Assembly (NCBI RefSeq): GCF_044704955.1
Contig: NC_091996.1
Coordinates: 2,418,001-2,482,000 of the forward strand
DNA from: Pristiophorus japonicus
Lineage: Eukaryota
DNA: 64,000 bases
Reading direction: 5' to 3'
A model generated the notes under the pieces. The model saw only the letters and a program-made list of their open reading frames with translations. It was not told where the DNA came from and searched no databases. Positions 22,301-25,300 of this stretch are shown one piece after another (position 1 is the stretch's first letter; each line of letters begins with the position of its first letter). Both the position numbers and the translations under genes were made by a program.

Positions 22301-25300
22301 TTGCAACATTGGCCAGGCCGAGTGGGGGGGGGGGGGGGGAGAGAGGCAGCCAGAGTCTGTGCCCCCCCCCGCCATGCGGAGCAGAGTCTCAGTCTCCACA
22401 GCGATCAGTGACAAGAGTGCTGGGCGTGTCCGGAACAGCACAAGCAGGGCTGCCTGGGGCTGGGGCCAGGCCACAGGGGGTCCTTACCTCAATGGGATCG
22501 ACATCGTGCCCAATGACCACCAGCTGAGCTTTCTTGCTCTCCACCAGCGTGGTGACAGTGTTCACACCTGGAGAGAGAGAGAGAGAGAGAGAGAGAGAGA
22601 GAGAGTTCGATCACATTCAGCCTCTCGAGCCTCACACTCCATTCTATCCAGTCACAGCTGATCTGCACCTCAACTCCACCTACCCACTTTGCTCCATATC
22701 CCCAATACCCTTGCCCAACAAAAATCCAGCTATCTCCACCTGGAAAGCTCCAATTGATCCTTTCCCGCCCCCCCGCTTTTTGGAGGGGGTTGGGGGGAAA
22801 GAGGGAAGAAGTGCTTCCTGACATCACCCCTGAGCGGCCGGGCTCTAATTTTAAGGTTCTGTCCCTTGTTGTGGACTCCCCCACCCCAGGAAATAGTTTC
22901 TCTCTCTACCCGATCGAATCCTTTAATCACCTGAAGCCCCTCGATCAGTTTGTGCAACCTGTAGGCATTGTTGAATCAGTGTCAGTCCTGGCTCAGTGGG
23001 CAGCACTCTGGCCAGAGTCAGAAAATTGTGTTTAAGCCCCACTCCAGAGCTCAAAATCCAGGCTGACACTCCAGTGGGTTATTTGGGGGGGGGGGGGGGG
23101 GGAGAGCGTGAATCGCAGAGCGCAGGAACCGGGGCGTCACGGAGCGCATCAGCGATCTTGGTGGTTGAATGCTTGTCATCCGTTGACATCAGATAGCAAA
23201 TATTCTGTTCACATCATCTGCAGACTCCGGAACCTCAATCGTCCCCACCCTCCCGTTACAGAAAGGACGGTCTCCGTCACTAGCGAGCACACAGAACTCC
23301 AATCACTGCACGTCCCAGGAACAGTAACTGAGAACCGAGCTGCACTGTTGGAGGTGCTGTCCTTCAGATGAGACACAGGAGGAAACTTACAGCCAGGGTG
23401 CTGGTCATCTGTAATCAATACACACTTCAAACCCCAGGGACCATAGCTCAGACAAGATTAAACATGAGCAGACCGAACCGTGTAAACTCACTCACACACC
23501 TGCTCGGAGAACGGCGGGCCTCTTGGTTGGAGCATCTCCCTTCCCGGCTGCCTTCTGCTCGGCTCGGGCCAGCAGCCTCTGCTTCTTCTCCTGCTTGGTC
23601 TCGGGTCTGTACTTGTGGGCCAGTTTGAAGAGCTGGGTTGCTGCAGAGAGAAGGAGGCAGCGTTAATGGGCTGCAGCGCGGGGGCCCGCAGAGCGCAGGA
23701 ACCGGGGCGTCACGGAGCGCATCAGCGATCTTGGTGGTTGAATGCTTGTCATCCGTTGACATCAGATAGCAAATATTCTGTTCACATCATCTGCAAACTC
23801 CGGAACCTCAACTGTTCATCCCCGTAGAGACAGGACAGTCTTCGCCACTAGTGGGCACAGAGCTCCAATCACTGCACATCCTCAGGATAATAACAGAAAC
23901 CAAGCAAACAGGTCAGAATCCCTGGACCAGAGGTGGGACAATGTGCAGTGGGGCAGGACCCTTCCCTCAGACATTCTCTCTCCTCCCGCCCCCCCCGTAA
24001 GACTAGGACCCACCAGCAGGCAATACGCAGTGGGCGGGCTCCGCCGGACATTTCCCACCCCCCCTGGAAGAGCAGGACTCACCGGTCTGCCTGTCCAAGG
24101 CCTGGGTGAACTGGTTGATTGCCGGGGGCACCTTCAGGCGTTTGTACAGGATGGCCCTCTGCCGCTGAAGTCTGACATAGCGCGGCCACTTCACAAACCT
24201 GGTCAGGTCCCTCTTTGGCTGGATATCCTGACCTGCGGAAAGAATCTGAATAATAAACTCACTGCGAGGAGGGAATGCCGCATTTTGTTCAGACCCCAGG
24301 ACATGCTTCACACACAACACATCCTGCTCGTTACATTCCCCTTTAACCATTGTTCACCGGTAACATCTGACGGGGCCGCACTGCTCTCCAGACTGACCAA
24401 ATGTACGGTGGCTTCAGCACGGACTGGTGTGCTATGTCCCCTGTGTGGCCCCATCAAAATATAGTGCACACGTGTTTTTTCACATTGAAATGTCAGCAAG
24501 CCACCTCACAGGTTCCCTGGAGCAATGCCAACCACGCACCTTCGTGTGATGTGGCCACAAACACAGCAGCCATTTTGCCTACAGCACAGTAAGATTCCCC
24601 CAGAAATGCAGCTCTCCTCCACCACTGCACTGAAGTGGAATGAAGCCTGACTATTGTGCTAGAATAGGGTTCAAGCCCACAACCGAATGAGCAAAGCTAG
24701 CTCTTAATCCGCCACACTGACAGCTCAAGTTTGCACAAGGAGACGTTTGCATGGAGTCAGTGGGCAGGGTGAAGAGGCAGCACAAAGCAATGCCCGAGGA
24801 ACACCAGACATGGCCTGTAGAGTAGCCGCACAGGCTCGCTATAACAGTGGCTTGTGTTACAGAGGCAGGTTATCGAAGGGCGCATCGACACCTCCTCTCT
24901 CCCCCCTCCCCATCAGCTCTCAATGCTCAGTGACACACCAACGTGCGGGTTACTGTCACTCACCATCTCATGTCTCCTGTTTTGAGTTTTGCGGAGCTGC
25001 CGGTTTGGAAAGATTCTGAACACCGTTGTATTACAAGCAAATTACTGAATTCAAATTTTTTTTTTTAAATAATCTGGAAATAAAAAGCCTGGATGGGTAA
25101 AAGTGACCACGAAACTGTCAGATTACGGTATAAACAACACGTTCAGATCTACAAATATCACAAACTGAATATATCGGAGCCAATGGGAACAGGGATTAAA
25201 CTTTCATTGACCTCTCTAGGTCCCACGGTACAGCACAGGCCATTCAGCCCATCGTGCCTGTGCCAGCTGTGAAAGAGCAATCCACTTAGTCCCACTCCCC

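Follow-up and report, generated by a model that had tools for sequence, protein, structure and literature searches.

Short snoRNA-bearing inserts that split transposons in neighboring RPL7A introns of Pristiophorus japonicus suggest break repair by templated insertion

Introduction

How does an intronic snoRNA gene come to occupy a neighboring intron of the same host gene as well? The RPL7A locus of Pristiophorus japonicus raises this question in a form that can be approached from the breakpoints, as two of its introns hold a copy of SNORD24 (U24) between the separated halves of a transposon. In human, Gilley and Fried reportedly placed U24 in intron 2 and U36 in introns 4–6 of this gene in 1998. 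If human intron 4 does house U36, then intron 4 has changed its snoRNA family here; we found no SNORD36 relic in the intron 4 studied here (best E-value 0.45; none in Rfam E-value mode).

Box C/D copies in neighboring introns are described as common and are attributed to cis-recombination (PMC8178906, PMC6984369, PMC2817437, PMC11028025). For this locus, the supplementary table of PMC6984369 gives two SNORD24 and three SNORD36 copies in Xenopus and one and three, respectively, in human, and PMC2653536 reports one SNORD24 and two SNORD36 copies in chicken. Cis-duplication into neighboring introns is already known, but its breakpoints are rarely seen; their anatomy, of which RPL7A provides a close-up, is the new part of this work. 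Within the open-access literature, we found no paper on snoRNA paralogues splitting transposon halves, and the three text supplements of PMC3349704 contained no match to SNORD24 or RPL7A.

Results

RPL7A hosts all snoRNAs detected in the window

We analyzed a window of 64 kb, that is, the whole stretch of DNA under study; its relevant features are collected in Table 1. The assignment of the host gene is supported by a match of exon 3 to 60S ribosomal protein L7a (E 2e-27) and of exon 6 to Pfam family PF01248, the other two of the three pieces searched giving no Pfam family. All six snoRNAs found by Rfam in the window lie within RPL7A, with one SNORD24 in each of introns 2, 3, and 4 and one SNORD36 in each of introns 5, 6, and 7. 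Together, the Rfam calls and the exon map identify the locus as a case of snoRNA cis-duplication. The three SNORD24 copies are identical in sequence across 78 nt, score above the gathering threshold of RF00069, and cover the model at full length (positions 1–76) with guides and boxes intact; in the intron-4 copy, boxes C, D′, C′, and D and both guides are all preserved.

A 21-nt SNORD24 motif returned no matches in a metagenome scan. Among the 15 sequencing runs listed as sharing words, six contained at least half of the words (one organism, two studies), and no RNA run was among them; the shares in the runs of two other organisms were 0.05–0.06. Long G/C runs were noticed near four of the six snoRNA copies, at 19755, 22153, 22324, and 23085.

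Table 1. Features of the RPL7A locus, in positions of the window
Feature	Position	Strand	Description
RPL7A (eL8) host gene	19260–28090	-	8 exons, intact 266-codon ORF, GT-AG introns (exon map and translation)
Intron-7 block	19536–19744	-	Copy of the intron 6/exon 7 region 20297–20536; adjoins a SINE head
SNORD36, intron 7	19638–19710	-	Rfam; within block 19536–19744
SNORD36, intron 6	20430–20502	-	Rfam; likely donor of the intron-7 copy
SNORD36, intron 5	22228–22306	-	Rfam; 72.7% to the other two SNORD36; older paralogue
SINE left half (tRNA head), intron 4	22979–23076	+	76 of 109 columns match the copy at 15202–15309
Filler, intron 4	23077–23113		37 nt, including an 18-nt G-run
Block copied from intron 3, intron 4	23114–23340	-	31-nt 3′ flank, SNORD24, and ~115-nt 5′ flank
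SNORD24, intron 4	23145–23222	-	RF00069, 66.2 bits (gathering score 41)
Junction zone, intron 4	23322–23340	+	Mosaic of SINE-like and donor-like letters
SINE right half, intron 4	23339–23374 (from 23322 if mosaic included)	+	36–53 nt; matches other SINE copies; truncated after 23374
Likely donor block, intron 3	23687–23905	-	Contains SNORD24 23718–23795
SNORD24, intron 3	23718–23795	-	Rfam; identical to the intron-4 copy
LINE 3′ fragment, left part, intron 2	25484–25590	+	Collinear with uninterrupted copies 36861–37253, 2857–3172, and 21601–21901
Insert, intron 2	25591–25722	-	SNORD24 25629–25706 with 16-nt 5′ flank and ~38-nt 3′ flank
SNORD24, intron 2	25629–25706	-	Rfam; identical to the intron-4 copy
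LINE fragment, right part, intron 2	25719–25982	+	Same LINE fragment as 25484–25590

A SNORD24 block lies between two SINE halves in intron 4

The SINE of intron 4 is probably SacSINE1/Deu-SINE-like, a cartilaginous-fish type; it was compared with the other copies in the window. Elements of this type are described in PMC5499810 as consisting of a tRNA head, a Deu domain, and an L2 tail. The left half also matches 41655–41693 (32 of 41 columns) and ends after CCAGTG (23076), where the first-pass annotation had placed the break. The right half aligns to 42060–42115 (41 of 59 columns) and to 40052–40105. Its score was reached by none of 2000 dinucleotide shuffles, with or without the first 17 nt (i.e. 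from 23339 onward), and the places in the window that do reach it merge into five loci, namely the intron-4 site and four SINE arrays. In these alignments the two halves are collinear in order and lie on the same strand, and the earlier reading of a SINE broken at this point by a SNORD24 insert stands. A 33-nt internal unit of the SINE has expanded to tandem arrays in four separate copies (15310–15868, 28340–28788, 39685–40086, and 41693–42092). Another tandem array, at 57231–58604, has a unit of ~26 nt and G/C runs of 11–21 nt.

The insert itself had been annotated as a G-run followed by a block of about 210 bp matching intron 3. The match to intron 3 is real, but it spans 228 columns at 86.8% identity (23114–23340 versus 23687–23905), and the G-run, although present, belongs to the filler, for which no source was found. 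The roughly 100 nt of intronic flank said to have been carried with U24 was confirmed, with a 5′ flank measured at ~115 nt. We detected no repeat in intron 3, the likely donor, by comparison within the window. No exact 10- or 13-nt word of the filler occurs elsewhere in the window, and no remnant of exon 4 or intron 4 was detected in it. We considered whether the filler could be a remnant of the donor's branch point and polypyrimidine tract and rejected this, as 692 of 2000 shuffles scored equally well; an origin from the G-run satellite at 57230–58600 or from the G-runs of intron 5 is likewise unsupported, the overlap being of low complexity only. On the sense strand of the gene, the region 23070–23113 combines a possible branch motif, a C-run, and a downstream AG, making it a candidate cryptic acceptor.

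The right junction is a 19-nt mosaic, of which 23322–23332 is SINE-like (10 of 11) and 23333–23340 donor-like (7 of 8); across 23316–23340, 19 of 25 columns match the donor. This zone resembles both parents above background. Outside masked arrays, the SINE 10-mer, with one edit allowed, has a background frequency of 3.9e-4 per position, 39 of the 48 SINE-word matches coming from a single unmasked tandem array; for the donor 8-mer, with one substitution allowed, the frequency is 2.6e-4 per position. Because of the mosaic, the right breakpoint can only be placed to 23322–23340, with 0–17 nt of the SINE missing; the previous placement of the SINE's resumption at about 23322 agrees with the SINE-like letters, but donor homology continues to the end of the zone. 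The order SINE-donor-SINE within the mosaic could arise only if the donor drifted later or if a double switch took place.

The intron-2 copy interrupts a LINE fragment

The element in intron 2 is presumably an L2-like LINE. The insertion splits it more cleanly than its counterpart in intron 4 splits the SINE, with collinear LINE halves of >100 and >250 nt on either side, in agreement with the first-pass annotation, which had proposed the same kind of event for this intron. Compared with three full-length uninterrupted copies in the window, the LINE lacks 9 nt at the insertion site; a fourth copy in the window has its own deletion at that point. At the right junction, the last 4 nt of the insert are common to the LINE and the donor, i.e. 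they constitute a microhomology. The 3′ flank of the insert shows a divergence of 0.28, compared with 0.14–0.17 between its LINE and another copy. The flank being more diverged than the LINE, the insert may derive from an older donor copy that has since disappeared.

A SNORD36 block in intron 7 includes part of an exon

The intron-7 block matches the intron 6/exon 7 region with 79.6% identity across 240 columns and contains SNORD36, the 3′ end of intron 6 with its acceptor AG lost, and ~49 nt of exon 7. This dead exon piece (19536–19584) corresponds to nucleotides 1–49 of exon 7, with 42 of 49 positions matching. In the copy, intron 6 sequence runs unspliced into exon 7, a continuity that excludes a lariat or a spliced template in this case; DNA or nascent pre-mRNA would fit. 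Judged by its sequence, tandem duplication fits this block as well as insertion does. With introns 4 and 2, this third event extends the series of local events that the earlier annotation had proposed.

Two further observations concern this part of the gene. The polypyrimidine tract and acceptor region of intron 7 (19366–19433) are a direct continuation of the 3′ tail of a SINE with an internal deletion; this SINE appears to be the source of the splice signal. A 36-nt minisatellite of ~13 copies (20929–21431) begins within intron 6, close to its 5′ end.

Cores are nearly identical and flanks diverged

The cores of the paired blocks are 98–100% identical, in contrast to flanks near 80%. In the intron 3/4 pair, 124 of 125 core positions agree, whereas the far flank is ~80% identical (74 matches, 19 mismatches, and 5 gaps); in the intron 6/7 pair, 107 of 109 core positions agree. 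The 31-nt 3′ flank of the intron 3/4 pair is free of mismatches, compared with 19 mismatches at 93 positions of the 5′ flank (Fisher p 0.003); in that 3′ flank, the intron-2 copy departs from the pair at 7 of 30 sites. Some of this identity is accounted for by purifying selection, because the conserved flank belongs in part to the stem; outside the stem, the signal comes from 17 sites with p 0.02 only. These data suggest that gene conversion acted on top of purifying selection.

The intron-4 flank distance is ~0.24 substitutions/site, and its SINE differs from other copies by 0.19–0.26. The flank distance is thus close to the SINE's own divergence, indicating that the intron-4 event is probably old. 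As the events would be old, the junctions may have been remodeled since.

Position within introns and predicted processing

SNORD24 in intron 3 and SNORD36 in intron 6 lie 77 and 85 nt, respectively, from the 3′ splice site, and the other copies lie 272–1396 nt from it. According to PMC4150776, a distance of ~75 nt is that of splicing-dependent processing, whereas copies located farther away need an extended terminal stem. Flank duplexes of -19 to -25 kcal/mol were predicted for all six copies, energies that carry no shuffle control. Exceptional folding stability of the precursors was rejected, as whole-region folds were not beyond shuffles in any of the six (z -0.5 to +0.95).

In introns of 1765, 442, and 932 nt, the SNORD24 starts (25706, 23795, and 23222) are separated from the 5′ splice site by 292, 288, and 278 nt, respectively. 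The rough chance of such similar spacing is 4e-4 to 2e-3, for a pattern noticed post hoc. The SNORD36 copies, at 182, 934, and 565 nt from the 5′ splice site, show no such spacing.

Discussion

Proposed break repair by templated insertion

Neither the insert in intron 4 nor that in intron 2 is accompanied by a target-site duplication or by a poly(A) or A-rich tail; the longest word common to both sides is 4 nt. Small target deletions and filler occur at the junctions, and the donors are only 0.6–1.9 kb away. The donor was left intact, in that the intron-3 block is still present, although the donor of the intron-2 copy is uncertain. In other words, the junctions carry microhomology, microdeletion, or filler and no duplication. 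This is the signature of class 2 templated insertions, which PMC5110952 characterizes by microdeletion, microhomology, and non-templated addition and reads as break repair.

Our preferred reading is that breaks were repaired by templated insertion, with nearby DNA as the template, and that selection and, likely, homogenization through gene conversion followed; we give it a probability slightly above one-half (about 0.55). The evidence on mechanism consists of sequence comparison in one genome. A germline DNA break would have occurred in an RPL7A intron, and one broken end would have invaded nearby DNA at a short match, copied it, and been end-joined, in an SDSA- or MMBIR-like manner. In intron 4, ~230 nt would have been copied from the neighboring intron into the break. 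The copy was likely kept by selection, as a sense intronic copy would give a working snoRNA. Distal copies may be expressed via extended terminal stems, and the copies were likely made uniform later by gene conversion. The transposons would be markers of the event and not its cause. Among the 83 local non-interspersed self-matches in the window, four are the snoRNA pairs and three proved on inspection to be a LINE-like copy, an array, and an inverted minisatellite; the other 76, judged by their coordinates, are nested matches of nine tandem arrays.

The same repair could instead have used an RNA template, with reverse transcription into the break from unspliced pre-mRNA or from a pre-snoRNA that retained its flanks. 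We regard this as rather unlikely. RPL7A belongs to a highly transcribed type of gene, which counts for such a template, and all three derived copies are in the sense orientation, although that orientation is expected from selection anyway. Both SNORD24 inserts stop 31–40 nt past the snoRNA, before the branch region of the donor, and both have their microhomology at the 5′ junction, where a cDNA would end. However, the 5′ flanks are variable (16, ~115, and ~50 nt), and the unspliced exon piece in the intron-7 copy leaves nascent RNA as the only possible RNA source. Class 2 insertions have been proposed to use RNA patches, but the published RNA-patch donors are spread over many chromosomes and are not adjacent (both PMC5110952). 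The same junctions are expected from DNA and from unspliced nascent RNA; we prefer a DNA template, which requires no additional enzyme and accounts for the variable flanks. A bolder form of the RNA model, in which highly transcribed snoRNA hosts mend their breaks with nascent, snoRNP-protected intron RNA and thereby let their snoRNAs seed neighboring introns, possibly at a fixed distance from the 5′ splice site, is in our opinion a long shot.

Tandem segmental duplication by unequal crossing-over that takes in a snoRNA and an exon, with the surplus exon deleted later as in cow U17HG, is the textbook route (PMC2653536; PMC1687206, with a 930-bp duplication including an exon). For introns 2 and 4, nevertheless, we consider it improbable. 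The dead exon-7 piece retained by the SNORD36 block speaks for it in intron 7, whereas introns 2 and 4 contain no exon remnant, and the clean-up deletion would have had to end within 17 nt of the breakpoint in intron 4 and within 9 nt in intron 2. A crude model with uniform endpoints puts the rough chances of this at 0.02 and 0.006, respectively.

It is also very doubtful that nothing was split in intron 4 and that the SINE pieces represent separate insertions or, for the right piece, a chance match. The right piece is indeed short and truncated, and the window is rich in SINE fragments. Against this, the right piece starts 0–17 nt from the end of the left piece in SINE coordinates and on the same strand, its score was never reached in the 2000 shuffles, and intron 2 repeats the pattern with >100 and >250 nt flanking the insert.

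Classical LINE-driven retroposition (snoRT) or an assembly artifact, in keeping as either may seem with the abundant LINE and SINE copies of the window and the almost identical cores, is hardly credible and appears largely refuted by the sequence: a snoRT as described in PMC1687206 would begin where the mature snoRNA does, carry an A-rich tail, and be flanked by a 7–19 bp duplication, all of which are absent, and the divergence of the far flank (19 mismatches and 5 gaps in 103 columns), together with the unique junctions, makes an assembly duplication unlikely. The first-pass annotation had argued against retroposition of the mature snoRNA from the intronic flank, and the upstream intron carried along, the lack of an A-tail, and the lack of a target-site duplication all agree with it.

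Two of its further suggestions found no support. A preference of the mechanism for landing in transposon sequence is not supported, as repeats already occupy at least 26% of these introns (2055 of 8029 nt; 29% of intron 4 and 31% of intron 2), a lower bound given by comparison within the window alone. A shark genome can be >70% masked (PMC10468316). Moreover, an insertion is recognizable as such only when it splits a repeat. Nor does the sense orientation need to be a feature of the mechanism, since only sense copies make the snoRNA and selection therefore leaves these.

Comparison with known systems

The biology of the locus is ordinary, consisting of additional copies of a conserved rRNA methylation guide. 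Its value lies in the split transposons, which act as rulers and indicate that the copies arrived as short inserts with the scars of break repair. The same approach could be applied genome-wide in slowly evolving, repeat-rich genomes, in which DNA-patch, RNA-patch, and tandem routes would become countable.

RPL7A resembles the snoRNA cis-duplications described in PMC2653536, PMC8178906, and PMC6984369 in having one paralogue per neighboring intron and conserved guides. Where those accounts give tandem or unspecified recombination, however, two of the RPL7A copies are non-tandem inserts that are short, show their breakpoints, and come with no duplicated exon. With the class 2 TSIPs of PMC5110952 it shares the lack of a target-site duplication and of poly(A), as well as microdeletion, microhomology, and filler. 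The donors of those insertions are distant regions, whereas the donor in RPL7A lies 0.6–1.9 kb away in the same gene and the insert contains a complete gene; in addition, class 2 TSIPs are polymorphic, and the RPL7A inserts are known from a single assembly.

The snoRNA retroposons of types 1–3 (PMC1687206) likewise comprise a new copy with some downstream intron, often beside retroposons, and the intron-7 copy resembles type 3 in including downstream intron and exon. Unlike these retroposons, as they are characterized there, the RPL7A inserts do not begin at the 5′ end of the mature snoRNA and have neither an A-tail nor a target-site duplication. Finally, the homogenization of nearby paralogues recalls the non-allelic gene conversion reported for SNORD115 and SNORD116 (PMC11028025), but in contrast to those arrays, the RPL7A copies number three, each in its own intron of a protein-coding gene, with short tracts of ~110–125 nt.
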